Source: Pirellulales bacterium
Lineage (GTDB): Bacteria > Planctomycetota > Planctomycetia > Pirellulales > UBA1268
Direction: 5' to 3'
DNA: 64,000 bases
Assembly (NCBI GenBank): GCA_965249545.1
Contig: CBDFMH010000005.1
Location: 897,082-961,081 of the forward strand
Each line of letters opens with the position of its first letter. The stretch's first letter is position 1. Made by a program: the position numbers and the translations under genes. The notes beneath the pieces were generated by a model. It was not told the DNA's origin, searched no databases, and saw nothing but the letters and a program-made list of their open reading frames with translations. Positions 43,016-62,434 of this stretch are shown here, one piece after another.

Positions 43016-43774
43016 GTGCGTTTACTATGTCTTATGATGATGTTTTTCGTTCTCTGTTTTACAGGAGTACGACAGGTTGATGCGGAGCAGCCGCACATTG
43101 TTTTCCTGATAGCAGAGAGAGAGTACCAAACGGAACAGACACTCCCCGATTTCTGTAAGCAGTATGTACGTGATGGAAAGAGTAGCTTTGTCCACGCAGA
43201 TCCACATGAGCCCAACAAATTGATTGGTAGTGAGGCAGTTGATACGGCAGATCTCTTGTTTGTGAGTGTTCGTCGAAGGACATTGCCACCACAACAACTC
43301 AATAGAATTCGTCGTTATGTCCAATCTGGTAAGCCAGTCATTGGTATACGTACGGCGAGTCATGCTTTCTGTTTACGGAAGCAAGAGCCAGAAGATGGCT
43401 TTGCTGCATGGCCAGAATTCGACAAAACGGTGTTTGGTGGAAACTACACCAATCATTACAAGAACTCACTCATCGCGACGATCCAGAGAGTGAATCCATC
43501 CTCTACTGTGGCAGAATCTCTCTTGTCTGGAATAAAAGAACTTCCGGTTAAGTCGGGTGGTTCGTTGTATTGTGTTTCACCTCTTGAAGAAAAGGCAGAC
43601 GTTGTTTTGGAAGGTGTTGTTGAAGGGCATGCCCCCGAACCAGTCGCCTGGACTTTTCGTCGTGCTGAAGGAGGCAAGTCGTTCTATACATCGCTCGGAC
43701 ATGTCGATGACTTTCGTGGGCCGGTTCTTCCGCCTCTTTTATTGAATGCCATTGAGTGGTGTCTCCATGACTAA
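43016..43774 (+). CDS. ThuA-domain (trehalose utilisation-like) protein
   Basis: After a signal peptide it has IVFLIAEREY, GKPVIGIRTASHAF and SFYTSLGH, typical of the ThuA-like class-I glutamine-amidotransferase-like fold. Confidence 0.6.
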   Translation: MRLLCLMMMFFVLCFTGVRQVDAEQPHIVFLIAEREYQTEQTLPDFCKQYVRDGKSSFVHADPHEPNKLIGSEAVDTADLLFVSVRRRTLPPQQLNRIRRYVQSGKPVIGIRTASHAFCLRKQEPEDGFAAWPEFDKTVFGGNYTNHYKNSLIATIQRVNPSSTVAESLLSGIKELPVKSGGSLYCVSPLEEKADVVLEGVVEGHAPEPVAWTFRRAEGGKSFYTSLGHVDDFRGPVLPPLLLNAIEWCLHD

Positions 43775-45012
43775 GTTGTATTTGTATCGATCTACGGTTT
43801 TCTTCCTAGTCATTCTCGCTCAGTGCTATGTACCAGTTTTTGGTGCGCCAGAGGTTGAGTGGGTGACTGGGTGGGGAACAGAACACGAAGACCATGTTTT
43901 TGAGGGTGTTCACGCAGAAGGTGGGGGTTTTTGTGTAGTCGGAAAATGTGGTGATCCAGATTCATCAACGGCAAATGGATTTGTGATGAAAGTTGATGCC
44001 AATGGGGAACAAGAGTGGCTGACAGTACTGGGAAAGCAAAGCTTTCATGACGAAGCACGCTGTGTTGTTGAAGCGCACGATGGTTTTATCGTTGGTGGAA
44101 CAACGGGTATCTCTAAAAGAAGATCAAAAGCGTGTCTTTGGAAGATAAGCCTGTCTGGTGAATTTATATGGAAGAAAGTTCTGGATCATAAGAAAAATGG
44201 TGCAATTCGGGGCCTCGATACTCTGGATGCAGAATCATTTGTGGCGACTGGATATGTTGCGAGTGATGAGATACGTGTTCCGTTTATTTCAGATGAGTCC
44301 ACTGGCATTCTTCTCGTTTCGAATCAAAGCGGTGACATCGCCTGGCAGAAAAGAAATGCCATTTTCACAAGGGGCGAAGGTCTCTTGTCGGAAAGAATCC
44401 TCCACCATCACTGTTTGCGGCACAGTCTGGCAGGAATCTTTTGAACGTGAACACCAGGATGCTTTCCTTGTTCAGTTTTCACGCGATGGAGAAAAACTAG
44501 ATCAGCATCTGTATGGAGGCGCTGATATGGAGCAGTGTTTTGACTTTGAGGCGTTACCTGATGGATTTGTTCTTGCTGGACACAAAGCAAGCCATGAGAG
44601 TGGGAATTGGGACGTATGGCTGGTAAGAACCGACACTGAGGGGAATCTGCTTTGGGAGCAAACGTATGACCAGTTGTCAAATGGAACAAGTAAAAACCTT
44701 TTCGATGAGTGTTATGGAGTGAAGCAGACATCCGATGGTGGATTCGTGCTCGCCTGCGGGTCTGGTATCGAGCCAGATCAGGTTTCTGACGAAGACTCAA
44801 TCGACAATCTATGGGCGGCGTGTTTGCTTAAAACTAACGCCATCGGAGAGCCGCTCTGGACGTATATATTTCACCAACCTGAAAGCGGGCACAATGCCTG
44901 CGAATGGGTTATTCCGCACGGTGATGAGAAGTACCTGATGCTCCTTGATAGTGATCACCTCGGTGAGGCAGAACCATCGAATGTTGGATTGGTTTACGTG
45001 TCCGACAATTAA
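43767..45012 (+). pseudogene. Repeat (beta-propeller-like) secreted protein interrupted by a 1-nt frameshift
   Basis: ORFs 43746-44444 and 44158-45012 carry the same repeat unit (GF.V.G......D..L.K....G...W). The sense frames join at the A4 run 44349-44352. Removing one A gives ...GDIAWQK-EMPFSQGAKV.... Confidence 0.65.
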
Positions 45013-47612: not shown

Positions 47613-47749
47613 GATACAAATCAATGATACTGAAGGGACTGATATTGTTTTCTACAAAGCGTGTTACTGTTTCATACGTTTAAGTAACAACAAATTGGTA
47701 TTTGTGTGAATAAGAAACCGTTCGAGCTTCTCGCACTACTCAAGATACC

Positions 47750-49012
47750 CTAAATATCGAGTGTCCCGGTACTTGATCCAAATTGATCGGACTCAATGCC
47801 CATTGATTGAAGAAGGGATACAAACAGGTTGCATAGAGGAACATTGTCTTTTTTGTTGTGCTGAATAAACCGGCCATGCTTGTGCTTCCCACCGGCCAGA
47901 ATGATCGGAAGATTTCTGGGGTCGTGAGCATTTGCATTTCCTAGGTTGCTGCCAAAGAGAACTGAGGTCTGCTCGAGTAAACCCGATCCATTTTCAGATG
48001 GCTGTTTCAAACCATCAAGGAAATTACTCAAGCACATAAGAATTTCCATTTCAATAATCTTGAGCTGTGTGATTCTCTCCGGGTCTTGTCCATGGTGAGA
48101 AAGAGGGTGATGGCCATCGGACACACCATCAATATTGGGAGTCCCATGGTCACTCTGAATAACAACAGATATCACGCGTGATGAATCTGTCTGGAGAATA
48201 AGTGGAATGAGGTTGAGAAGCGACCGTACACGACCAACTAAATCAGATGGGTCGGCAATATTTTCTGGAGGTGCCGTCTGAACACTGGGTTTCGGTCGAT
48301 CGAGCCATACTTCGGAATTATTTAATTCTGTTTCAGCAACCCGAATGGAGTCAAAATATTGTTCAAGTTGATGTTTATCGGTGCTGGGTGTTGTGCGCTC
48401 TATTGATCGTATCTGCTCAATCACACTATCGAGAATGCTATGGCCATCTGCTAGGCGTTGCCTCTGTTGTCTGATTTCTTTTTGACTTCCACGTAAGAAT
48501 AATTTTGTATACACCTGAGACGGCATATCATCAGCAGGAATCATCACACCGTTTCTTGTGAAAGATTGACTTTTCTTTCTGTTACTACTCAGTGAGACAG
48601 ATGGGTATCTTGTCACATTTCCAATTTTTTCGGCAGCAAACTGATCAATTGAAATCGTGTTTCGAAAACCTCCGAGGCCAGGGTTTCTTGCAGATGTGAG
48701 GAAGGTCATCTCGGTATCGTGAGGATCTTTCCCTACCTGGTCTGGATGTGAAAGACCTGCGAATAGCGTGTACTCCTTGCGATGACGTTGAAGAATGTCT
48801 AGGTATTCGGTGCTTTCGTAGTTGTTACCTGTTGTCGCAGGAAATAAGGACGGTGCATGGAGGCCAAGCGTGTTACAGATACACACCATCCGCTTGGGTG
48901 GTGCCACGTTATTCCCACCAATTGCCATGCTCATGGATTCAAGAAGAGGCAAGGCAACTGTAATTCCAGAAGCTTTTAGTGCTGTGCGTCGTGAGAGCGG
49001 TGTGTGCATCAT
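47750..49012 (-). CDS. DUF1552-domain protein
   Basis: The N-terminal LSRRTALKASGITVALPLLESM, SIDQFAAEKIG and VLFGSNLGNANAHDPRNLPIILAGG are DUF1552 hallmarks. The start overlaps the DUF1592 stop (ATGA). Confidence 0.8.
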   Translation of the reverse strand: MMHTPLSRRTALKASGITVALPLLESMSMAIGGNNVAPPKRMVCICNTLGLHAPSLFPATTGNNYESTEYLDILQRHRKEYTLFAGLSHPDQVGKDPHDTEMTFLTSARNPGLGGFRNTISIDQFAAEKIGNVTRYPSVSLSSNRKKSQSFTRNGVMIPADDMPSQVYTKLFLRGSQKEIRQQRQRLADGHSILDSVIEQIRSIERTTPSTDKHQLEQYFDSIRVAETELNNSEVWLDRPKPSVQTAPPENIADPSDLVGRVRSLLNLIPLILQTDSSRVISVVIQSDHGTPNIDGVSDGHHPLSHHGQDPERITQLKIIEMEILMCLSNFLDGLKQPSENGSGLLEQTSVLFGSNLGNANAHDPRNLPIILAGGKHKHGRFIQHNKKDNVPLCNLFVSLLQSMGIESDQFGSSTGTLDI

Positions 49013-51456
49013 CGATTCCTGAACAGGGGACTTGTAACAACGTGGTGGACAAGACTTCGGAGAGGATATCCGTCGCTTTGTGTCGCAGAAAGAATGCGTT
49101 CGACTTCATCACGATCAGAAAATTCAATGTCACCACCCGTCGCGAAAATGATCAACTGCGAGAGAGTATTTCGTGCAATTTGTTTTGTTGATTCACGAAG
49201 TAATTTGCGATAGTCACGAATGTTTTGGAAAACATCGCCCTCGACTGTGACCCCAGACGTGTTTACACGCGGGCCTGAGTTGTAACTCACTCGCTTTAAC
49301 CGTAATCCAGGTTGAAGACTTTGTTTCATATTTTTACCAATGCGATAGTGCTGCCGGTACGTACCAACCGGATCGAAGCCTTCCATTGCGAAACCTGGTG
49401 GATCGATATGCTGATGACATCTAGCACATGTTTCAACCGACTGATGCTTTAAAAGCATCTGACGAATGGTGGTAGTGCCTCGTGTATCTGGTTCAATTGT
49501 GGCAATGTCTGGCGGTGGTGGGTTTGGTGGGAGCCCCAGCACATGCGTAAGGATAAAATTGCCACGTTTGACGGGCGTTGTGACACTCCCATTTGCAGTC
49601 ACTTTTGCAATTGAGGCATGTCCAAGAATACCGCCTCGAGGGCTCGATGCGTCCAAGGAGACTTTCCTCATCGTTTCGCCGAATACGCCTTTGATGTCAT
49701 AGTGTTCAGCAAGACGGCGGTTCAGGAATGTAAAGTCGGAGTCAATCAGGTTATGGATTGGCAGATTTTCTTTCAGCAGATACGAGAAAAAATCTCGTGT
49801 CTCAGCAAGCATTGCTCGACGTAAGACATCATCATATTCAGGGTACAGTTTTATATCAGGTGTCGTTGCATCAATCTGATCGAGTTCGAACCACTGATCT
49901 GTAAAATCATGAATAAAGAGTTGGTTTTTTTTATCAGCCAAGAGTCGATCTACCTGAGTAGACAGCGTGTTTGAATCAGAGAGCCTTCCCTCGCTCGCTA
50001 ATCGAAGTAACTCTTCGTCAGGAGGGCTTCGCCAGAGAAAATATGAAAGTCGAGAGGCAAGCGCATGGTCGGTTAGCTTCGACTTATTTTTCTGCAAATC
50101 GTTCGTCAGAAGGAGCGTATGTGGAGAAATGAGGATCGCTGTTAATGGAATGCGAGCGCTGGCAAGAAACCCACGCTGGGCTTCGAGGCTCGGAATAGCG
50201 AGATTGGTCAGCTCCGTTATTTCTTTCTTAGTGACTGGTCTTCGGAAGGCTCTGGGGGCAAGCGATGCCACAGCGTCACGAATATGTTGGTAATGAGATT
50301 TTGTTGTAACGGGTCTGTACGATCTTCTATTTACAGTCCGTTCCCATTCAACACCTGGGAACAGGGATCGTGTTCGGCGTGGAGGCCACGTAGTTTCCAG
50401 CGGACCTTCAACAAGCACCTCACGAACCCGTACGCCCTCTCCTTTGAACTCACTTGCAGGTTGAGAGTTGTAAATGAGTTTGCCATCAGGTGCCGGTTCA
50501 AGTTCATCAGCACTGACATAAAAGTAATCATCTGGCCGGAAATAGTGAATCGTTGAAACAGTTCGCATTTTCTCTGTCACATCCCATGCGGCAAAGAGTT
50601 CACTATTACCCTGAATATCATTCTGACGCTTGAGGCTCATGGTCACCGACGAGCGCGGCTGATACGCAGAGCCGGTGACCGTAATCCGATATCGTCCAGG
50701 AGCAGAAAATCGCAGGCCATTTGCATCCGATCGCAGGTTGTGGTTTTCACCACGGAACATGATGAGATCATCATTGTCTCGAAACACTGTGCCACCACCA
50801 CGGCGGACGGGTCGTTCAAACCACATTTGCATGTATCGCGAGTTTGCATAATCAAGCTCACGTTTCATATTTGGTTTTGGACCCAACTCAATTGCTTCAT
50901 CAAGAGCGGCTTCGGCTGCTTTGAGAAAACCTTTCACGTGGACGCTGGACATTTCCTGATTCGCCGCCACGACATCAAACGCTCCTGACTCATCTTCTGG
51001 TGGGAGATATTTTGCAATTTCACCACCTATGCCCAGAAGATCATGGAGCGTATGTTCGTACTCACGGCGTGACAGCCGCCTTGAGGGCACTCTTCCATTC
51101 TGTTTTCGTGCCTGTTTATTTATTTGTGAAAGTTCTTTTTTAAGTGTCGATAATGCGGCATGCCTCGCTTCATCACTTGGCACGAAAGAATCTGGCGGAG
51201 GCATTTCTCGACGCTGAATACGATCGAATATGAGTACCCATTGCTGGAACGCTTCCGGTGACGCGTACGGTTTATCGATGGCGTTTAAGTTCAAATGTGT
51301 CGCTGTCTCTGCATCATGACACGAGACACAGGCTGTTTGAACCAGATTTTCAACTGCATGAAAATCATTTTCCGCATGTACAAACGGCATGTGGGTAGCA
51401 AGCAGATACGCCCATGCGACGAAATACTTTCGGAGAAGATATCGAAATAGTCTCAT
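49009..51456 (-). CDS. DUF1587/DUF1592/DUF1595/DUF1588/DUF1585-type multidomain protein
   Basis: It has an N-terminal CVSCHD (CxxCH) and a C-terminal CARCHQHIDPPGFAMEGFDPVGTYR. The size of 815 aa and the partner DUF1552 downstream fit the known gene pair. Confidence 0.8.
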   Translation of the reverse strand: MRLFRYLLRKYFVAWAYLLATHMPFVHAENDFHAVENLVQTACVSCHDAETATHLNLNAIDKPYASPEAFQQWVLIFDRIQRREMPPPDSFVPSDEARHAALSTLKKELSQINKQARKQNGRVPSRRLSRREYEHTLHDLLGIGGEIAKYLPPEDESGAFDVVAANQEMSSVHVKGFLKAAEAALDEAIELGPKPNMKRELDYANSRYMQMWFERPVRRGGGTVFRDNDDLIMFRGENHNLRSDANGLRFSAPGRYRITVTGSAYQPRSSVTMSLKRQNDIQGNSELFAAWDVTEKMRTVSTIHYFRPDDYFYVSADELEPAPDGKLIYNSQPASEFKGEGVRVREVLVEGPLETTWPPRRTRSLFPGVEWERTVNRRSYRPVTTKSHYQHIRDAVASLAPRAFRRPVTKKEITELTNLAIPSLEAQRGFLASARIPLTAILISPHTLLLTNDLQKNKSKLTDHALASRLSYFLWRSPPDEELLRLASEGRLSDSNTLSTQVDRLLADKKNQLFIHDFTDQWFELDQIDATTPDIKLYPEYDDVLRRAMLAETRDFFSYLLKENLPIHNLIDSDFTFLNRRLAEHYDIKGVFGETMRKVSLDASSPRGGILGHASIAKVTANGSVTTPVKRGNFILTHVLGLPPNPPPPDIATIEPDTRGTTTIRQMLLKHQSVETCARCHQHIDPPGFAMEGFDPVGTYRQHYRIGKNMKQSLQPGLRLKRVSYNSGPRVNTSGVTVEGDVFQNIRDYRKLLRESTKQIARNTLSQLIIFATGGDIEFSDRDEVERILSATQSDGYPLRSLVHHVVTSPLFRNR

Positions 51457-53921
51457 TGGTTTGTAGCTGGAATAGCCTTTGAGGACTCGACAAATGCCAA
51501 AAGGTCAAGAATATCTTCAGCCGTAAAGGTATCGAGCAATCCACTCGGCATGCTGGAAACGTCAGCAACCTTTCGTTCCTCAATCGCTGACTTTTGAATT
51601 CGCTCAATGTTCTCCGGTCGAAGCAGGTTCTGTACGATCTCTACATGGTCCGGTGTTTCATTGACTACTAAGCCAGTCAGAAGACGACCATCATCAACAA
51701 GGATCATCTGTGTTTTAAAATCCTTATGAATCTCTTGAGATGGATTCACAAGCTGCAACAGAAGCTTGCCGCCCTGAAAGCGTTTTGAGACCGCTGTTAG
51801 GTCTGGGCCGTATTTTGCACCCTTTCCTTCAATCGAATGGCACCGGCTACAGGCTGCCTGTTCGAAAACGTATCGGCCATTGTCGAGAGATCGATTCTCT
51901 AAATGATTTGCCTGTGTAATCAGCTCTCGATAATTCTGCTTCCATTTTTTTACAAACTTTCTGGTTGGAATAGCATCCGGCTCGGTACTCCCGACGTGTT
52001 CTAGAATACGAATAAACATTTGGCCATCACGGCTTCGCTTTGGATTCTGGCGTCGGAACTGTTGCCACAACTTGTTCACCTGTTGTCGTTGCGATGAACT
52101 GAGTTCAGTCATCCGTACATCAACATATTCTTGATGATTGTTTCCGTGGTAGGCAGCTGGTAATGGAGATTGACTAATTTTTTGAAACAGGCCCTGATTC
52201 GGAGGCCTGCGTTTTGGTACCACAGCAAGATTACCCACATCATGATTCCCGTCGTATGTTTTTGCGATGAGCTGCGTGCCACCATGTGTTGGCAGCGTGT
52301 CAGGGAACGAAATACGGATCACAGCTCCAACGCCTCGTTCCATATGACGGGCTGGTCCAGATGTACTGGTCCAGACATTGCCTTCATCATCAAATTCAAT
52401 TTCACGTGTGTATGAGACGCGGGTTGGTAAACGGAACTCAACAAGTGTTTCAGTGACGGGGTCAAACCTGTTAATTGTGTCGTTTCCAGTACCACAGACC
52501 CAGACAATGCCGTCCTTATCGATATTTAATGCATACGGAATCTGGTTTTCAGCATCAGGCAACTCGTAGACAGTCCAGCGTTCGGTCGTGGGATCAAACT
52601 TTCCAAATACACCCGACCCAAAGCCAGGAACCCAGACCATGCCATCAGGTGCTACATGAAGCCGACGTGGTCCACGAAAAGGCGGGTTCCACTCTTTGAT
52701 CGCGCCATCATCGACCGACGGGTCAATTCGTCCAATCCGGTTGCCATTGAGCTTGGAATACCAGATCATTCCATCGACGGGAGAAAAATCGATGCCATAG
52801 GGTGTAATGCCTCGTGACTCACCACGACCAGCGGCAGTCGCCTGACCAGCATCAAGGAGTTTGTATTCTTTGACGACGTGTGTTGTTGGATGAATCGAAA
52901 AACATGAATTGGAGCCGGCATCGGTGTACCAAATCAATCCTTCAGGATCACTCGGATTGATTCGTAATGTATGTGGGTAATTCCCACGTGTCTTTGGTGC
53001 CTCCGCACTGCTGTAGGTTTCAAATTGCTCAGTATTGAAATCAAAGCGAACCATCTTGCCACTTGCACACATGGTCGTCCACAGGCTTCCATCATTGGCT
53101 GTTTCAATTGAATGAGGGCCGTAGGCTCCTTTCGGATATTTGTACGTTGTTTGCTCACCCGATTCGGTATCAAGTGCAATCAACTTTCCGTTTTGAATGT
53201 TGACCGCATAGACTCTTCCATCACGGCCAAGTTCCAGATCATGAAACGATCCTTGGAGCAGTTCATCCATTTCCCACATTGTTATTGTGGCAGCAGCAGC
53301 AAGCCCTGTTGGAGCTGGTGGTGGCACAAAAGTTGGCCATTGTTTGACGGCGTCTCCTTTGTACGTTTCCATCAGTCGAGGAATGATGGTTTCTTTTGTA
53401 TGTGGAAACAGCCCACCGAATCCATCCATTCGCCTGAGCATGGTCTCCCAGTCAACAGGCTCTTCTGGAGTTCGAAAACCCACGGTTCCAACTTGATGGC
53501 AGTAGGAACACATCATTTTGAAATTGAGCTTGGCATGTGAATCCTCAAAATCCAACATGCTGAAGGCACTGTTTGCCGGTCGCTGTAATTCGAGCTCTTC
53601 ACCAACTGCTGGGCGTGTCTGGATGTGAAGATTATCTGTGTTCGCAGACACGCTGCTCAGCCAGGTATCTGCGAGCCCCATGAGGCGAGTACGGAGCCGA
53701 TAATTACAGTTCCTGAGCCCATCAATGGTAAAAGAGCCATCCGGTTTGGTGAATACAGATGTCCATTTTCGATGCTCAGTGTCAATTGCTGAAACCATGA
53801 CACCTTCAACGGGCATGCTCTTTTCATTGACGACAGTCCCTTGAATCGTTGCTGCTTGGCTGAAAGCGCAACTGAGCAGTACTGTAAGACTAGAGCAAAA
53901 TAGAACCACACTTTTTTTCAT
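51453..53921 (-). CDS. Multidomain secreted protein: carboxypeptidase-regulatory-like domain, CxxCH, beta-propeller (Vgb-lyase-like), conserved ~70-aa module, C-terminal Pirellula-type haem-binding domain
   Basis: Features in order are a signal peptide, TIQGTVVNEKSMPVEGVMVSA, MCSYCH, and repeated propeller blades (DGSLWTT, EGLIWYTD, DGMIWYS, DGMVWVP, DGIVWVC, EGNVWTS). The C-terminal part has ACSRCHSIEGKG...SSMPSGLL...EDILDLLAFV. The ORF is open to 53963. Confidence 0.8.
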   Translation of the reverse strand: MKKSVVLFCSSLTVLLSCAFSQAATIQGTVVNEKSMPVEGVMVSAIDTEHRKWTSVFTKPDGSFTIDGLRNCNYRLRTRLMGLADTWLSSVSANTDNLHIQTRPAVGEELELQRPANSAFSMLDFEDSHAKLNFKMMCSYCHQVGTVGFRTPEEPVDWETMLRRMDGFGGLFPHTKETIIPRLMETYKGDAVKQWPTFVPPPAPTGLAAAATITMWEMDELLQGSFHDLELGRDGRVYAVNIQNGKLIALDTESGEQTTYKYPKGAYGPHSIETANDGSLWTTMCASGKMVRFDFNTEQFETYSSAEAPKTRGNYPHTLRINPSDPEGLIWYTDAGSNSCFSIHPTTHVVKEYKLLDAGQATAAGRGESRGITPYGIDFSPVDGMIWYSKLNGNRIGRIDPSVDDGAIKEWNPPFRGPRRLHVAPDGMVWVPGFGSGVFGKFDPTTERWTVYELPDAENQIPYALNIDKDGIVWVCGTGNDTINRFDPVTETLVEFRLPTRVSYTREIEFDDEGNVWTSTSGPARHMERGVGAVIRISFPDTLPTHGGTQLIAKTYDGNHDVGNLAVVPKRRPPNQGLFQKISQSPLPAAYHGNNHQEYVDVRMTELSSSQRQQVNKLWQQFRRQNPKRSRDGQMFIRILEHVGSTEPDAIPTRKFVKKWKQNYRELITQANHLENRSLDNGRYVFEQAACSRCHSIEGKGAKYGPDLTAVSKRFQGGKLLLQLVNPSQEIHKDFKTQMILVDDGRLLTGLVVNETPDHVEIVQNLLRPENIERIQKSAIEERKVADVSSMPSGLLDTFTAEDILDLLAFVESSKAIPATNQ
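51984..52196 (-). other. Conserved ~70-aa module, copy C (between propeller and haem-binding domain)
   Basis: QGLFQKISQSPLPAAYHGNNHQEYVDVRMTELSSSQRQQVNKLWQQFRRQNPKRSRDGQMFIRILEHVGST. Confidence 0.7.
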
Positions 53922-53991
53922 GGCATCTTTCCCACCAAGGCAAAAAACTCGTTTGGTTTTCATAGTATCCTCTCACAATCAGATAGTGCAG

Positions 53992-56900
53992 TTAGTTGTT
54001 TTTGTTTTCACCAATGCAGTACAGATACTGCCGGCCCCGCAAATAAAGGCAGTCGCCTACTGGTACAGGTGAGGCATTAAATTCATCATCAAGTTTGTTC
54101 GTAGCAACAACATTCAATTCATTTGTGTGTTTGAGTACGACAATAGCACCAGTTCGGCCGGCAAAATAAACATGGCTGTTGGCACCAACAGGAGACGCAT
54201 AGATATTTTGAATATCAGGCAGGCGTGTTCGTTCGATGATTGCTTCACCAGTGGTGACATTTAAAGAAGTAAGAATTCCCTTGTTGGATTGGGTGAAATA
54301 CAACTGGTCATCAAATAGGAGTGGAGATGGAATGTATGGAGTTCCTTTGTCGCCTGACCAAACAACTGCAGAACTTCCAGAAACATCACCCTTCGAATCA
54401 AGTTTTAAAGCCATGACAGAGTGGCCTTCATAGCCGCTCATGCAGATGACCATGTCGTTATAGATGACTGGTGAAGGCGTAACGTTGCCGGTCAATCCAC
54501 TGCATTGCCAAATGACCTCTCCGGTATCAAGGTCGTAGCTGCGAATGAAATTTGAAGCTGCTGTGATAACCTGCGTTCGTTCACCATCTTTTGTAAAGAT
54601 TTTAGGTGTTGCCCATGCATTTTTCTCATCGCGGGTACGTTTCCAGACGGTTTGACCGGTTGCAGCTTCAAGGACCTCTATCGATGATTGGCCAGAATGA
54701 TCACGGACGATAATAATTCGTCCATGATGAAGGACAGGAGAGCATCCTTCACCGAGGCTGGCTCCGACGCGAACTTCTCCAAGGTCCCGTTTCCAGAGCA
54801 ATGTTCCATCAAGGCTGTAGCAGTACATCCCTGCAGAGCCAAACCAGCAGTACAGTCGTTCTCCATCAGTCACCGGTGATGCACAGGCAAAGTCGGCATG
54901 GTGATGAGAGCCTTCATGGGGAACTTTTTCAGTTGCAGTCTGTTGCCAGAGCGTTTTTCCAGTGAACCGGTTCAAACAAAGAACTTCAAACCGAAAAACA
55001 GTATTCGGGAATGTAATGCCGAAAACCCGCTCAGGCTGTTCTTCTGGAGGTGGCAGGCTTGGATCAACAACTTTGGTATCAACGGCTGTCAGAACAAATA
55101 TCTTGTCATCCCACACAATGGGAGAAGCGTTACCCTGTCCTTCAATCGGTACTTTCCAGCGGATGTTGTTTTCTTCACTCCACGTGACAGGAGGTGAAGC
55201 AGTTGCACTCATGCCAGTAGCTTCTGGCCCTCGCCATTGATGCCAGTAGCGTTTTGTTTTCTCAAGAAAAGCTTTTTGTTCGCGAGGGAATTGGTAATTG
55301 CTGTCTGCAAACGTGTCATTTCTTGTCAGCGTATCTTCACTTTTGTGCTGTTTTCCTGATGACTGGACGTAATCCAATATTTTGACAAAGAGCTGTCCTT
55401 TATTGACGCCCTCATTCTGTTCGGTGCTGGCCTTTTTCCAAAGTTCTCCCAGACGTGTTCGTTGCTTCGGTGACAATTTTTTCATTCGTTCATCAACGTA
55501 GGATTGATGATTTGAGCCACGGTAGCCACGAGGAATTGGGCGTTGCGATATCTTCTTGAGAATGTCTTGAGATGATGATTGAACACGCTGACCTTTCTCA
55601 GGATTCTGTTTCGCTTTTCCCTGTTTGTTTTCTGTTCCAGTTTGAGCAGACCAGTCCGGTGCATCGGCCATAATATCCTTGTAGAGCGCCAGCAGCTTTT
55701 TCTTGAGACGCTCAGTGACTTTCGGACGTTGCTTTGAGATGTCCTTCTTTTGTTGCGGATCAGTTTTTAAGTCGTACAGTTCGAACCGGCTAAACCCGCC
55801 TGCCTTGATCGTTGGAATCCACGCTTCCTGGAAGGTCCGTGCACGAACGAACTCACTCTTCAGCCGGTTGTATTCGGGGCTGGAGAAGGTGGTGTTGGTG
55901 ACGCGGGAACCCAGGTTGGGCGCCCGCGGATTGATGCCTGCCAATCTGGCCAGCTTCTGCTGCAATTCATTTTTCTTGGCATTATTCGCGTAGGCAATTT
56001 GTAATCAGAGTAGCCCATCAGCGTGTAATCCCCTTCACGCAAGGTAGCGAGATGACCCGATGACGGTGAAAGCCACAACAGGGGTTGCGATCGATTCAAG
56101 TCACCTTTCTCGATGAGCAACGGTGAAAGGTCAGCGCCATCAAGGTGCACGCCTTTGGGTTTATCGATACCGGTCAGGCCGCAAATCGTTGGCAGTAAAT
56201 CAACCGAGCCTGAAGGTGTGTCTTCAGTACGACCGCCTCGAAAACCATTCGGCCAGAAGAAAATACCCGGAGATCGTAATCCACCTTCAAATTTCGATCC
56301 TTTGGCACCAGTCAATCCACCATTTCGATCAGCCCGATAACTTCCGTGGTCTGAGGAGTAAATAATGAAGGTGTTGTCCAGCTTGCCTGTTTCTTTGAGC
56401 TTTGCAACGAGTCGTCCAATGGCTCGATCGGTGTTATCGACTGTGGCCGAATAGATTGCGGCTTCATCCTTGAGGTCGCCGTAGATCGAGGTGATCTCAT
56501 CAGGCGCCGCCAGTTTGGAGTGAGGCTCATTGAACCACATGTTCATGAAGAACGGTTGATCCGGATTCTTCTTCTCGTCTAACCAGCGGATCGCATCGTC
56601 CACGATCAACTGACACGAATAGCCTTTCAGCGGTCCGACTCGTTTGCCGTTGCGCATAAAGTTCGTAGGATCCTTATGGCTTGGGTTGGCTCCGTTGGAG
56701 AGCCCGAACCAGTAGTCAAAACCGTGCTGCTGAAGCGTAGGTTTTTTTCGTTTGCCTGAGGTCATCCCGACGTGCCACTTGCCGAAGTGGGCCGTTCCAT
56801 AACCAGCCTGTTGCAACACTTCTGCGATCGTCACTTCGCGTTCCAGCAGATGCATGTCGTGCATGTGATCCTGCAGAACGCTGTAAATACCAGTGCGGAG

Positions 56901-57158
56901 ATTCTGCCTTCCGGTAAGGAGAGTCGCCCGCGATGGCGAGCAGACTGCTGCCCCGGCGTGAAAGTCGGTGAACTTGACCCCACGCGCTGCCAGGTTGTCG
57001 AGCACTGGTGTTTTGACTGGCCCGCCATAACAGCCGAGATCCTTTGATCCAAGATCATCGGCCAGCAGAATGACTACGTTGGGCTTGGATTGCTTTTCTT
57101 CAGCTGAAGCAAACGTAGCCAGCATCAGGAAGCATAAAAATGTGTGGATAGGTTTCAT
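53992..57158 (-). pseudogene. Sulfatase, ~70-aa module and PQQ-like beta-propeller fusion gene, disrupted by a frameshift near 55990-56000
   Basis: ORF 55860-57158 encodes a sulfatase catalytic domain (signal peptide, CSPSRATLLTGR, GKWHVG). ORF 53992-55965 begins with the missing sulfatase C-terminal subdomain (FSRFELYDLKTDPQQKKDIS), collinear with the paralog at 57168-59069. It continues into an 8-bladed PQQ/BamB-like propeller. Confidence 0.7.
55357..55569 (-). other. Conserved ~70-aa module, copy B (between sulfatase and PQQ-like propeller)
   Basis: QDILKKISQRPIPRGYRGSNHQSYVDERMKKLSPKQRTRLGELWKKASTEQNEGVNKGQLFVKILDYVQSS. Confidence 0.7.
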
Positions 57159-57167
57159 AGTATTTAC

Positions 57168-59069
57168 TCAGTTCGTGTTTCCTTTTTCAACGTCTCCGGT
57201 CTCTCCCTTACCTCCGGAAATGTAAGTGAGAATTTTGACGAAAGAGGCTCCCCGATTGGTCATGTTTGGATAGAGAATGCGTTTTTCTTTCCAGAGTTTA
57301 CCGACCCGTGCGCGTTGTTTGGGTGTGAGACCAGCCATGACCTTGTCAACGTAGGCCTGGTGGCTGCTTCCTTGGTAGCCGTCTGGAAGGGAATTCTTTT
57401 CGATGCGAGCCAAGAGGTCCGCGGTTTTCGAACTCGATGTCTCGGCGATGGGCCGTTGTAACGCGTTTCCCCGGGGCTTCTTCGCTGCGGTCAGATCCTC
57501 TGGGGTGACATATTCCGGTCCATCGGTCATGACACTTGTGTGGATGAGGTTGGCCTGCTTTTTCATGTGTGCGATGAGCCTGGGATGCTTTTTCGAAATG
57601 TCGTTTTGCTGACCGATATCCTTCGAGAGGTCATAGAGCTCAACCCGATCGACACCTCCTTTTTTCATGAGAGGGATCAAAGCTTCATTAAAGTAGAACA
57701 AGGACCGAAATTCATCGCGCAGCCGGTTGGCTTCTGGATTGGCAAATCGGCCGTTGAACATGCGGGACCGCAGATCCAATCCGCCCAGTTCCTTTTCAAT
57801 GTTGTCCCCAAGAGCAGTCTTGGTCTGCTGCAGCAAACGGTTCGCCTTGGCACTATCAAAAGGGAGTCTGACTGTGCTCGGCGCCAAAAGGGTGTGGCTA
57901 CCCATTCGAAGCGCCATGGTGGAGCCGTTCATCCAGAAAAGCGGCTGATGACGTTCAAAATTACCTGTTCCGGTGAGCAAAGGAGTGAGGTCTGAACCGT
58001 CGAGGAAGACGTTCTTAGGTTTCTCGATGCCAAGAAGCCCACAGATGGTGGGAAGCAGGTCAACGGCTCCAGCAGGCTCTTTCTCAACGCGACCACCAAT
58101 GATCTTTCTTTTCCAGTAGAAGATCCCCGGCACTCGGTGGCCGCCTTCATAATGTGATCCCTTTTTGCCGCGCAGTTCCCCGCTGCGCTCTTGTCGGTAG
58201 CTACCGTTATCGGAGGAGTAGTGAATGATCGTGTTATCGAGCTCGCCGAGTTCTTTGAGCTTGTTGATGAGTCGCCCGATGGCACGGTCTGTATTGTCGA
58301 TGGTGCCGTTGTAGATGGCAGCCTGATCGTTCAGCGAACCATATTCGGAGACGATCTCGTCGGGGGCTGCAATGACGGCGTGAGGTTCATTGAACCAAAT
58401 ATTGATGAAAAATGGTGCGTCGGTTCCATGTTTGTCGATCCAGTCAATAGCTTCATCGACAACGAGCTGGCAGGAGTAACCTTTCATGGGCCCAACGGGT
58501 TTACCGTTGCGCAGAAAGTTGGTGGGATCTTTGTGACTCGGATTAGCACCATTGACCAGGCCGAACCAGTAGTCGAATCCATGATCGGACGGGGTGGGAT
58601 TGCTGCGCCCGTTAACAGGCATGCCGAGATGCCACTTGCCAAAGTGAGCGGTGCCGAAGCCTTCGCCTTTCAGGACCTCGGCGAGTGTCGTTTCACTCCG
58701 AAGGAGATGCATTTTGTGACGCTGTTCACTGAGGACGGAATAGACTCCGGCACGGATGTGGTTACGGCCAGTGAGAAAAGTGGCACGGGAAGGAGAGCAG
58801 ACCGGTGCCCCGGAGTGGAAGTCAGTGAAGCGCACGCCTTCGGCAGCCAACGTGTCAAGTACCGGTGTATTGACTGGCCCCCCGTAACAGCCAATGTCGC
58901 GGTAGCCGAGGTCGTCAACGAGGAGGGTGATGACGTTTGGTGGTTTTCGGTTGCTCTTTGTAGTGGAAAACGTCTTTCCATTTTGTTTCTGAGATGGCCG
59001 AGGTAGTCGGTCATTTTTGTTCCAGTCGCATAGCTTCCGGACTGTGTGTTTTTGTTTTTTGGGAGCCAT
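57168..59069 (-). CDS. Sulfatase (S1, Cys-type) with C-terminal ~70-aa conserved module
   Basis: Motifs are VITLLVDDLGYRD, CSPSRATFLTGR, GKWHLG, SSDNGS and VELYDLSKD. A C-terminal extension ends in the shared module. Confidence 0.9.
   Translation of the reverse strand: MAPKKQKHTVRKLCDWNKNDRLPRPSQKQNGKTFSTTKSNRKPPNVITLLVDDLGYRDIGCYGGPVNTPVLDTLAAEGVRFTDFHSGAPVCSPSRATFLTGRNHIRAGVYSVLSEQRHKMHLLRSETTLAEVLKGEGFGTAHFGKWHLGMPVNGRSNPTPSDHGFDYWFGLVNGANPSHKDPTNFLRNGKPVGPMKGYSCQLVVDEAIDWIDKHGTDAPFFINIWFNEPHAVIAAPDEIVSEYGSLNDQAAIYNGTIDNTDRAIGRLINKLKELGELDNTIIHYSSDNGSYRQERSGELRGKKGSHYEGGHRVPGIFYWKRKIIGGRVEKEPAGAVDLLPTICGLLGIEKPKNVFLDGSDLTPLLTGTGNFERHQPLFWMNGSTMALRMGSHTLLAPSTVRLPFDSAKANRLLQQTKTALGDNIEKELGGLDLRSRMFNGRFANPEANRLRDEFRSLFYFNEALIPLMKKGGVDRVELYDLSKDIGQQNDISKKHPRLIAHMKKQANLIHTSVMTDGPEYVTPEDLTAAKKPRGNALQRPIAETSSSKTADLLARIEKNSLPDGYQGSSHQAYVDKVMAGLTPKQRARVGKLWKEKRILYPNMTNRGASFVKILTYISGGKGETGDVEKGNTN
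57210..57422 (-). other. Conserved ~70-aa module, copy A (C-terminus of sulfatase 57168-59069)
   Basis: ADLLARIEKNSLPDGYQGSSHQAYVDKVMAGLTPKQRARVGKLWKEKRILYPNMTNRGASFVKILTYISGG. Confidence 0.7.
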
Positions 59070-59078
59070 TTTTTTAGT

Positions 59079-60527
59079 TCACATATCTGTGTATCGCGTG
59101 TCATTGGCGAGGTTCTTCCACTGATTGGGGTCTTTGGTGGCATCGTAGAGCTCCTCATCACCGGCGCTATAACGAATGTAATGCCAATGCTTGGAACGGA
59201 CTGCGTGGTCTCCACGTAGGCTGACTACGGCCGGATTGGGCCATTTTGTTTTCGGATGAAGAAGGAGTGGTGCGATACTACGTCCATCGAGTCTGTCGCG
59301 GGCTGGCAATCCACAGAGCTCGACCAGTGTGGGGTAGAGATCTACGAGGCTGACCGGTTGCTGGCATTGTTTGCCACCAGTCGCTGCCAAGTCTGGAGTG
59401 GAAATGATAAGCGGCGTTTTCGAACCTTGTTCCCATAGCGTTAGCTTGGAGATGCGGTCTTTTTGGCCAATGTGAAAGCCATGGTCGCCCCATAAGACGA
59501 TGATTGTATTATCGGCGTACTTACTTTTTTCCAATGCATCCAGAACAACTCCAACACAGGCATCCGCGAATGAGCACGAAGCGAGGTACCCTTGAACCGC
59601 TTTTTTCCATTCCCCATGTTCACGGATAACGCCAAAGGCCTGGCTTCCACCAGAGCTTTGTCGACGTCCACTTGGCGGCACGTCAGCTAAATCATTTTCA
59701 AGGGTGGCCGGTAGCTTTATTTTCTCCAAGGGATGCATGTCGAAGTATTTCCGCGGCGCATACCAGCGGAGGTGCGGGCGAAAGATACCGCAGGCCAGGA
59801 AGAAGGGCTTGTCGTGATCGCGCAGCAGGAACGCAGCGGCGCCTTCGGCGGTCTTTCTGTCGGCTGTCTCCCTGTCCGGAATGTCAAGTGGCTGCCAATC
59901 TGCCCAATCTTGGTAATACTCTTGTGCCATCTTGTCACTCAATCCATGCAGGAGACGACCATTTTTTGGAAACGGTGTTCCATGCTTGGTCGAATATTGA
60001 TGATTCCAAGAGACAGGGTCAGAGAACTTGCCACTGGGTTTATGAAAGATCTTGCCTCCCATTACCGCTGTGTACCCATGCTGACGAAAGTACTGTGGGA
60101 TCGTCACCAAGTCATGGAATTCTGGCTTGTCGCGGAACCATGAAATAGCATCGCCTTGACCATACCTGCCTTCGTTACTCCAGATATCGATTGTTGATGA
60201 CCGCAAGCCTGTCATCGTCGCCATTCGTGAAGGGTTGCACAAAGGCGCCGAGCAATAGGCCTGTTCGAACAGCATTCCGCGTGATGCAAGCCGATCTATA
60301 TTTGGAGTTTTTGCTTGAGGATGTCCTCCTAAACAACCAATCCAGTCATTTAAATCATCGACGGCGATAAACAGGACGTTCGGCCTGGCTGTTTTCGCGC
60401 CAGCATAAGCCTGTTGCTGAAAAGAAACAAACATGAAGAAGTGAAGTGCGATCAACAGTTTCGGAGCGAATTGCCTTGTTTTCGCTGTGATCTTGATAGA
60501 AAAACGTTTCATTTCACTTCTCAGCAA
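59079..60527 (-). CDS. Sulfatase (S1, Cys-type)
   Basis: Motifs are PNVLFIAVDDLNDW, CNPSRMATMTGL, GKIFH, WGDHGFHIG and DEELYDATKDPNQWKNLA. Confidence 0.9.
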   Translation of the reverse strand: MLRSEMKRFSIKITAKTRQFAPKLLIALHFFMFVSFQQQAYAGAKTARPNVLFIAVDDLNDWIGCLGGHPQAKTPNIDRLASRGMLFEQAYCSAPLCNPSRMATMTGLRSSTIDIWSNEGRYGQGDAISWFRDKPEFHDLVTIPQYFRQHGYTAVMGGKIFHKPSGKFSDPVSWNHQYSTKHGTPFPKNGRLLHGLSDKMAQEYYQDWADWQPLDIPDRETADRKTAEGAAAFLLRDHDKPFFLACGIFRPHLRWYAPRKYFDMHPLEKIKLPATLENDLADVPPSGRRQSSGGSQAFGVIREHGEWKKAVQGYLASCSFADACVGVVLDALEKSKYADNTIIVLWGDHGFHIGQKDRISKLTLWEQGSKTPLIISTPDLAATGGKQCQQPVSLVDLYPTLVELCGLPARDRLDGRSIAPLLLHPKTKWPNPAVVSLRGDHAVRSKHWHYIRYSAGDEELYDATKDPNQWKNLANDTRYTDM

Positions 60528-61513: not shown

Positions 61514-62434
61514 TCAGTCACTGCTTTTGATGTTTTGTTCTTTCATTTCACATACAACTCGAAAGCCGGCAAGATACTCGGGCCTAAAGTGCGATCCTCC
61601 AGAAATGTGTCGCGTTGCCGAGCGAACATCCTGTGCGTTGCTACTAAATCCCCCACCACGCCAAACGTGTAAGCGTCCTTTCTCAGGCCCCTTTGGGTCG
61701 GTGGTGACTTTCTTTATCAGTGTTGTGGGATAGAGGTCGTACTTGTCACTGCACCACTCGCACACGTTGCCGTGCATGTCATAAAGCATCCAGTGATTCG
61801 GTTTTTTTAAACCCCATGGATGCGGATACTGCTCCTTGGCCTTATAGGCATTGTTGAAATACCAGCCATAGTCATCAAGCTTGAAGGGTTTGTTTCCAAA
61901 GTAAAACGCTGTTACCGTGCCGCCGCGGCAGGCATATTCCCATTCGGCTTCGGTTGGCAGCCGGTAGACCCTGCCTTCTTTTTCACTCAAGCGTTTACAA
62001 AATCCTGTAGCTTTTTTGTGAGAAACATACGTAGCAGGAGTGTTTACCGATTCTTTTGTCAAAGGTTCGTCAAGCCAAGGCGTTTCATCCATCACCATGA
62101 TGTAGTGTTCTTGAGTTACCTCAGAGACACTCATGAAAAATGGTGTCGAAATCTGAACTCGATGCAGTGGAGATTCATCTTTCGTGTTGGACCACTTCAC
62201 TTTGGTGTCTGAAGACGTACCCATCTGAAACTCACCAGATGGAATTGGAACAAAAATGAGACCAATTGAATTCTCAAATGCTTGACCGGTCTCACGCTGC
62301 TCCGGTGCTAATGAAGATGCAATAAAACTGAGGCTTGGCGAGGGCTCAGAGCATCCCGCAAGTAAACTAACGGTGAAGCAGAGTGAAACGAGTCCACTCG
62401 TGCGTTGAAGAGTACACCTTTGGAAGGGAGCCAT
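61514..62434 (-). CDS. Formylglycine-generating enzyme (FGE/SUMF1) family protein
   Basis: YRLPTEAEWEYACRGG, HGNVCEWCSD and VWRGGGFSSNAQDVRSATR are FGE-sulfatase domain signatures. A lipoprotein-like signal is present (LLAGCS). Confidence 0.88.
   Translation of the reverse strand: MAPFQRCTLQRTSGLVSLCFTVSLLAGCSEPSPSLSFIASSLAPEQRETGQAFENSIGLIFVPIPSGEFQMGTSSDTKVKWSNTKDESPLHRVQISTPFFMSVSEVTQEHYIMVMDETPWLDEPLTKESVNTPATYVSHKKATGFCKRLSEKEGRVYRLPTEAEWEYACRGGTVTAFYFGNKPFKLDDYGWYFNNAYKAKEQYPHPWGLKKPNHWMLYDMHGNVCEWCSDKYDLYPTTLIKKVTTDPKGPEKGRLHVWRGGGFSSNAQDVRSATRHISGGSHFRPEYLAGFRVVCEMKEQNIKSSD

Follow-up and report, generated by a model that had tools for sequence, protein, structure and literature searches.

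The stretch analysed was 64,000 nucleotides (nt) of a Pirellulales bacterium genome (assembly GCA_965249545.1, contig CBDFMH010000005.1) and is referred to as the window. The minus strand of the window encodes a sulfatase joined to a beta-propeller, and this gene is interrupted by a change of reading frame. Two open reading frames (ORFs) cover it. The upstream ORF (55860-57158) encodes 432 amino acids (aa) and its C-terminal end (...GYSDYKLPTRIMPRKMNCSRSW...NTTG) is a Pro/Ser/Trp-rich tail. The downstream ORF (53992-55965) encodes 657 aa from a TTG start and is in the -1 frame relative to the upstream ORF. Its frame is open upstream as far as a TGA at 56007 and reads LQIAYANNAKKNELQQKLARLAG / ...YANNAKKNELQQKLARLAG... 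The overlap of both frames is 148 nt (56007-55860). The frame switch was located at AAATTGCC-TAC-GCG (55992-55990, minus strand). The initial annotation of the window had placed the split at a non-homopolymer site at 55985-56000 within the string AAATTGCCTACGCGAATAATGCC, which was located at 56000-55978 on the minus strand. Its placement agreed with the switch found here, and homopolymers were absent from the junction site.

Removal of 55991-55990 produced a 1054-aa ORF containing KLPANNAKK. The repaired protein was searched against a collection of 5.8 billion proteins (90% clusters), and the 120 best-scoring clusters were counted. It matched the proteins P0001, P0043 and P0102 at the junction. 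P0001 (1055 aa) had 98% identity to the repaired protein over 100% of its length. The repaired protein also aligned to the product of the tandem paralogue at 57168-59069 with 55% identity over 596 residues (E = 0), well above what chance would give, and this alignment was unbroken across the junction. Pfam domains were Sulfatase at residues 26-331 (219.2 bits, cut-off 25) and PQQ_2 at residues 725-972 (79.7 bits). The ORFs 55860-57158 and 53992-55965 are two frames of one gene, which encodes a sulfatase-propeller protein of approximately 1054 aa, predicted to be secreted. The initial annotation had described the same two ORFs as halves of a gene of approximately 1055 aa for a sulfatase, a shared module and an 8-bladed propeller, and the paralogue alignment, the Pfam matches and a propeller model of approximately 32 strands bore this out.

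The junction was compared with DNA from JGI metagenomes (L001-L005), an NCBI metagenome-assembled genome (MAG; L006), GTDB species-representative genomes (L007-L038) and an ENA assembly (L039). All 18 homologous loci covering the junction (77-99% identity to the window, independent assemblies) were exactly 2 nt shorter than the window and in frame. The window junction is CCT AC GCG AAT. The commonest allele among relatives was CCC GCG AAT. Other alleles were CCT GCG AAT, CCA GCG AAT and CCT ACG GAT, the last found in L006, which is the closest relative of the window on either side of the junction. Farther loci had CCT TCG, GAG or GAA. The placement of the insertion is ambiguous within 55992-55987 and it can be written as TA, as AC or as a duplication of CG. 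A 1-nt correction had been proposed earlier. Adding 1 nt did restore the frame (1055 aa), but only arithmetically; the historical state is 2 nt fewer, and the lesion is a gain of 2 nt rather than a loss of 1 nt. The initial annotation had asked for orthologues to be compared and would have abandoned its reading had they consisted of two separate genes with the same boundaries. The opposite was found, as the fusion was intact in one uninterrupted frame at 18 of 18 loci.

The window allele was private. A gapped junction pattern scanned across the JGI metagenomes returned four contigs, every one in frame, and the window allele was not found among them. The frameshift tail peptide had fewer than three 5-residue words in common with every one of the 5.8 billion proteins. 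The 432-aa and 657-aa ORFs were likewise both not found in that collection.

In the predicted structure the frame break lies inside the sulfatase fold and not between domains. An AlphaFold model of P0001 (pLDDT, the predicted local distance difference test, of 72.5) placed junction residue 389 in a loop after the strand at 379-384. The sulfatase fold of the model runs approximately 110 residues past this point, with the FELYDL strand at 458-463 and the C-terminal helix at 479-499. Approximately 500-530 columns aligned to complete S1 sulfatases (3ed4, S1_19, S1_16) in Foldseek. A complete sulfatase fold on a single polypeptide is present at 18 of 18 orthologous loci and is broken at residue 389 in the window as assembled. 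Gene fission, which would leave a 432-aa sulfatase and a module-plus-propeller protein working as separate products, is highly improbable. Both ORFs are long and open and domain shuffling is frequent in the family, but through the cut the sulfatase loses the ELYDL strand and its C-terminal helix and gains 43 unrelated residues in their place. The TTG start of the downstream ORF has no Shine-Dalgarno-like sequence, its product has no signal peptide, and no orthologue among the 18 loci shares these boundaries. Separate expression of the two halves had also been suggested in the initial annotation; given the lost strand and helix and the poor downstream start, the products are unlikely to be functional.

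Production of the full-length protein by programmed -1 ribosomal frameshifting or transcriptional slippage can be given hardly any credence. The 148-nt overlap speaks for it, but no X XXY YYZ heptamer occurs within 56007-55860. An A5 run (AGA AAA ATG, 55974) lies 15 nt downstream of the junction, and with one tRNA-Lys slip there 7 aberrant residues would precede the return to frame. At the orthologous loci, however, this run is ordinary in-frame Lys-Lys-Asn coding, and 0 of 18 need a shift. It would be without precedent for a recoding signal to occur in a single assembly only.

Besides the insertion there were zero window-private differences over 47711-57116 (9.4 kb, at least 5 comparison loci). 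The ratio of nonsynonymous to synonymous polymorphism (pN/pS) was 0.11-0.23 for both halves and shows purifying selection on them. The 665 codons 3' of the break contained no further stop or indel and no window-private substitution. As the allele is private, the surrounding 9.4 kb has no other private difference and pN/pS is low, the lesion is either extremely recent or not biological.

Two further genes in the window carried private lesions. In relatives the tandem paralogue belongs to a larger protein, either a di-sulfatase of 1116 aa (P0132), whose second half it forms, or a tri-sulfatase of 1560 aa (P0122). In the window the di-sulfatase is split into ORFs of 482 aa and 633 aa by 19 out-of-frame codons containing a TGA, which lie between the shortfalls at 59081 and 59022. 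At 59081, GTGAAAAATGAAC in L005 and L006 is ATGTGAAC in the window. This second lesion in a neighbouring sulfatase gene fits decay of the array and assembly error alike. The third lesion, at approximately 44349, is one extra A in TGGCAGAAA[A]GAAAT (homopolymer A3 to A4) and yields the ORFs 43746-44444 and 44158-45012. In 1-41 kb, where close relatives for comparison were lacking, a crude scan for neighbouring ORFs on one strand but in different frames did not reveal any other obvious split gene.

The two extra bases are probably a consensus or assembly error and the real gene is probably intact. A consensus error is favoured because three private lesions, one of them in a homopolymer, occur in approximately 17 genes on a 3.04-Mb contig of an uncultured marine planctomycete. 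We infer the error from comparison of loci, and several observations weigh against it. A 2-nt insertion outside a homopolymer is not typical of long-read error. Compared with L003 and L004 over 9-10 kb the window had no other indel save one in-frame 3-nt difference, and because it is nearly indel-free against these loci the assembly is not generally noisy. The three lesions lie in approximately 15 kb and could equally reflect genuine relaxed selection on the gene cluster in this strain. A duplication of CG to CGCG on an ACG-AAT haplotype is plausible as a real slippage mutation.

The alternative is a real mutation of very recent origin that inactivated the gene (an insertion of 2 bp or a duplication of CG), and it is possible if somewhat unlikely. 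The gene would then be a fresh pseudogene, possibly marking incipient decay of the row of sulfatase genes. The insertion is present in the sequence as given, the adjacent di-sulfatase is split in this genome only, and the gene at approximately 44349 is frameshifted. Neighbourhood structure also varies among strains (P0002-type recombinants, di- and tri-sulfatase forms) and its members may be dispensable. Relaxed constraint was not apparent, however, from the pN/pS values, and secondary stops and private substitutions downstream of the break were absent. Neither the other assemblies nor the protein database contained the allele, and for a genome with a 3.04-Mb main contig three private lesions in approximately 17 genes are many. 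The inserted site resembles a splice of two population alleles, CCTACG|GAT (L006) and CCCG|CGAAT. This hybrid look (CCTACG + CGAAT) might be taken to prove a chimeric consensus but is not decisive; an intermediate ACG-AAT haplotype with a CG duplication explains it equally well. Uniform CCTACGCGAAT reads over the junction would mean a real null allele. A mixture of CCTACGGAT and CCCGCGAAT would mean a consensus error.

With a consensus or assembly error as the preferred explanation, the extra bases would have arisen in a long contig drawn from a mixed natural population, and the gene would work like its orthologues. The protein would be exported via the Sec pathway. The neighbouring formylglycine-generating enzyme (FGE) would convert Cys73, in CSPSR, to formylglycine, and the sulfatase would take sulfate off a sulfated glycan. 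The propeller may bind substrate or perform a second catalytic step. Export, maturation, desulfation and the propeller role are all predicted from sequence. S1 sulfatases hydrolyse sulfate esters after FGE has oxidised a Cys to formylglycine. The substrates in marine bacteria of the Planctomycetota-Verrucomicrobiota-Chlamydiota (PVC) group are most probably sulfated polysaccharides.

For annotation, 53992-57158 should be treated as a single gene, frameshifted or mis-assembled, and not as a truncated sulfatase and an orphan propeller. Several private frame-breaking lesions occur on the contig, so apparent pseudogenes there need read-level confirmation. The features of the locus are listed in Table 1.

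Table 1. Coordinates and supporting evidence for the interrupted sulfatase-propeller gene, its parts and neighbouring features in the window.
Feature	Position	Strand	Evidence or comment
Whole interrupted gene: signal peptide, S1 sulfatase, helical module, 8-bladed propeller	53992..57158	-	1054 aa after removal of 2 nt
N-terminal coding part, frame A, 389 codons	55992..57158	-	Pfam PF00884 and motif coordinates
Sec-type signal peptide	about residues 1-19, ...FASA/EE	-	Predicted from sequence
Metal-binding ADDLG	57062-57048	-	Sequence motif
Formylglycine motif CSPSR	56942-56928	-	Sequence motif
GKWH	56783-56772	-	Sequence motif
SSDHG	56357-56343	-	Sequence motif
2-nt insertion 'AC' after Pro codon CCT	55990..55991	-	18 homologous loci all shorter by 2 nt
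Out-of-frame tail of 432-aa ORF (TRIMPRKMNCSRSWPDWQASIRGRPTWVPASPTPPSPAPNTTG and stop), not a real domain	55860..55989	-	No protein match
C-terminal coding part, frame B, 665 codons and stop	53992..55989	-	Collinear with paralogue
Rest of sulfatase fold beyond break: helices, FELYDL strand (from 55785), C-terminal helix ...LLALYKDIM	55657..55989	-	P0001 model, Foldseek, paralogue collinearity
Shared module, approximately 75 aa, four predicted helices	55348..55578	-	Small hidden Markov model (HMM); helices at 530-601 in P0001 model
8-bladed PQQ-like / BamB-like beta-propeller	53995..55245	-	Pfam PQQ_2, structure model, Foldseek
Tandem paralogue: sulfatase and module, 633 aa, no signal peptide of its own	57168..59069	-	ORF, Pfam, alignment
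Upstream sulfatase ORF, 482 aa as listed	59079..60527	-	Reads through into paralogue in L005, L006, P0132
Second private lesion: 5 nt shorter at 59081, 1 nt shorter at 59022	59022..59081	-	Versus L005, L006; more distantly L018, L021, L036
Formylglycine-generating enzyme (FGE) gene	61514..62434	-	Cluster members named so by sources
Private lesion in 421-aa hypothetical gene	43746-45012, lesion about 44348-44352	+	Intact in L039, L012, L023, L031, L009

The fusion was not rare. The initial annotation had called a sulfatase-propeller fusion an unusual architecture, and this did not hold. Approximately 66 of the 120 best clusters carry Sulfatase (PF00884) and PQQ_2 (PF13360), many of them in the range 1030-1300 aa. 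The cluster of P0001 has 191 members, and that of P0002 (1052 aa, 78% identical) has 250 members. The sources were marine Planctomycetota (Pirellulales, Planctomycetaceae, Fuerstiella, Rubripirellula) and Verrucomicrobiota/Opitutales. A literature search found no description of a sulfatase/PQQ-like propeller fusion, and in NCBIfam no curated cut-off was reached for the fusion. It is abundantly present and annotated in sequence databases, with no characterised member. Whether the break is an error or a mutation, what it interrupts is an ordinary copy of a multidomain sulfatase that is common and uncharacterised. The family is abundant in marine PVC bacteria and is a reasonable target for biochemistry irrespective of the frameshift.

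The closest relatives are metagenomic proteins named 'sulfatase-like hydrolase/transferase' or 'arylsulfatase A / BamB' (P0001, P0002, P0004, P0046, P0079, P0086 and P0093, among others). They are uncharacterised and have the same domain order, with 52-98% identity over 97-100% of the length. They differ from the window gene in being intact. Most relatives are also longer, at 1230-1300 aa, through an added C-terminal cytochrome c domain (CAACH motif), which the short form in the window lacks. The ENA protein P0102 (582 aa) comes from another assembly of the same gene and is 98% identical. It turns into unrelated sequence after ...NNIRWKV inside the propeller, and frame breaks or chimeric joins in assemblies of the sulfatase-propeller gene are therefore not unique to the window.

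The sulfatase half belongs to the S1 formylglycine-dependent sulfatases, as evidenced by the PF00884 score, the formylglycine, metal and catalytic motifs and the nearby FGE gene. The closest structures were the E. coli putative arylsulfatase 3ed4, the S1_19 carrageenan sulfatases 6psm, 6prm and 9hh2, and the S1_16 enzyme 9fo1. The CSPSR, DD, K-x-H, D-H and K residues are kept, the best PDB sequence match had E = 4e-53 and the Foldseek matches had E of approximately 1e-23. A GAKGS motif is likewise present. The catalytic and metal-binding columns were invariant across 42 homologues. Unlike these S1 sulfatases the protein has approximately 550 extra C-terminal residues (module and propeller) and a multi-helix insertion at about residues 393-453 before the last strand, and in the window its fold is cut in two by the frameshift. 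The full-length model matched only sulfatases in Foldseek, and the propeller was therefore modelled separately.

The gene's only window-private substitutions are in codons 5-16, in the signal peptide. Within 44 nt there (57116-57159, minus strand) lie six substitutions and a T-run that is shorter by 3 nt, in frame. This cluster may have come from another signal peptide by conversion, or the consensus may be poor locally.

The module between sulfatase and propeller has the pattern PxGYxGsxHQxYVDxxM..L.pkQR...g.LW...G..FvkIL.Yv. The HMM found three copies in the window: that of the interrupted gene, one in the paralogue (about 57190-57420) and one in an 836-aa protein (about 51966-52196, residues 590-666). 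The three module-bearing genes adjoin one another. No Pfam family matched the module, even at E up to 10. In multi-sulfatase relatives the module sits at the joints between domains.

The model of the propeller segment (53995-55278) had a pLDDT of 85 and a pTM (predicted template modelling score) of 0.87. It contained approximately 32 strands, which therefore make eight blades. Both the sulfatase and the propeller half were strongly conserved across the 42 sequences. In the propeller many His, Glu, Cys, Arg and Asp columns were invariant, and several Cys were conserved. Family-invariant motifs were PHEGxHH (from 54921; PHEGSHH in the window), GEGCSP (from 54753), RD and GYEG. The invariant polar residues, together with the best fold match (tetrathionate hydrolase) and the cytochrome c domain fused in most relatives, suggest that the propeller may be more than a passive scaffold and may be enzymatic or have a site of its own.

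The propeller was compared with three known systems. BamB (YfgL), a lipoprotein of the beta-barrel assembly machinery (BAM) complex, has the same 8-bladed PQQ-like fold, with target-normalised TM-scores of 0.72-0.79, and also shares the PQQ_2 match. It differs in its low identity (16-19%), in the NCBIfam model TIGR03300 (37.8 bits against a cut-off of 285) and in being a stand-alone lipoprotein, where the window propeller is fused. The best Foldseek match was tetrathionate hydrolase of Acidithiobacillus ferrooxidans (6l8a, 7cqy; E = 1e-16, TM 0.60-0.68). Tetrathionate hydrolase is a cofactor-free 8-bladed propeller enzyme acting on a sulfur oxyanion. Identity to it was 14-16% and the similarity was no better than to BamB, and the likeness may serve as a lead and not as a classification. 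Quinohaemoprotein alcohol dehydrogenases (e.g. 1kv9) have PQQ-like repeats and share with the long homologues the order of propeller then cytochrome c. Their propeller is about 550-600 residues compared to approximately 415 here, and 1kv9 was only at rank 50 in Foldseek (target-normalised TM-score 0.46). With the NCBIfam model TIGR03075 for PQQ (pyrroloquinoline quinone) dehydrogenases P0004 scored 19 bits against a cut-off of 480 and P0001 had no match.

The family might represent a new kind of bifunctional enzyme, although this is doubtful. An S1 sulfatase would be joined via a recombination-prone helical module of approximately 75 aa to a catalytic 8-bladed propeller resembling tetrathionate hydrolase or a quinoprotein, which would pass electrons to the fused cytochrome c in most members. 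The module would also serve as the joint for the shuffling of sulfatases to partners of the DUF1501, DUF229, esterase, Vgb-lyase-type propeller and PSD/PSCyt types.

The gene stands in a single minus-strand row of DUF1559 (prepilin-type), FGE, PD40-like protein, di-sulfatase, sulfatase-propeller gene, 836-aa protein, DUF1592/PSD and DUF1552. Cys-type sulfatases need FGE as a maturase. The 836-aa protein has a carboxypeptidase-regulatory-like domain, a Vgb-lyase/SGL propeller, the shared module and a cytochrome c domain.

P0002-type genes (loci L010, L011, L013 and L039) combine a sulfatase of the paralogue type (window 58937-57514) with the C-terminal part of the sulfatase-propeller gene from 55671. 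The breakpoint is ...VM/ADAPDW. Such genes appear to stem from unequal recombination of the tandem paralogues, or else to represent the ancestral single-gene state. The identity of approximately 80-85% between sulfatases from Planctomycetota MAGs and those from Verrucomicrobiota MAGs may reflect lateral transfer or mis-binning. Sulfatase domains with 74-85% identity (P0005-P0037, P0104-P0117) are fused elsewhere to DUF1501, DUF229, esterase, Vgb-lyase-type propeller, DUF1592/PSD and DUF1552. The variety of these fusions points to extensive domain shuffling. Three of the partner types (Vgb-lyase-type propeller, DUF1592/PSD and DUF1552) correspond to separate neighbour genes in the window.

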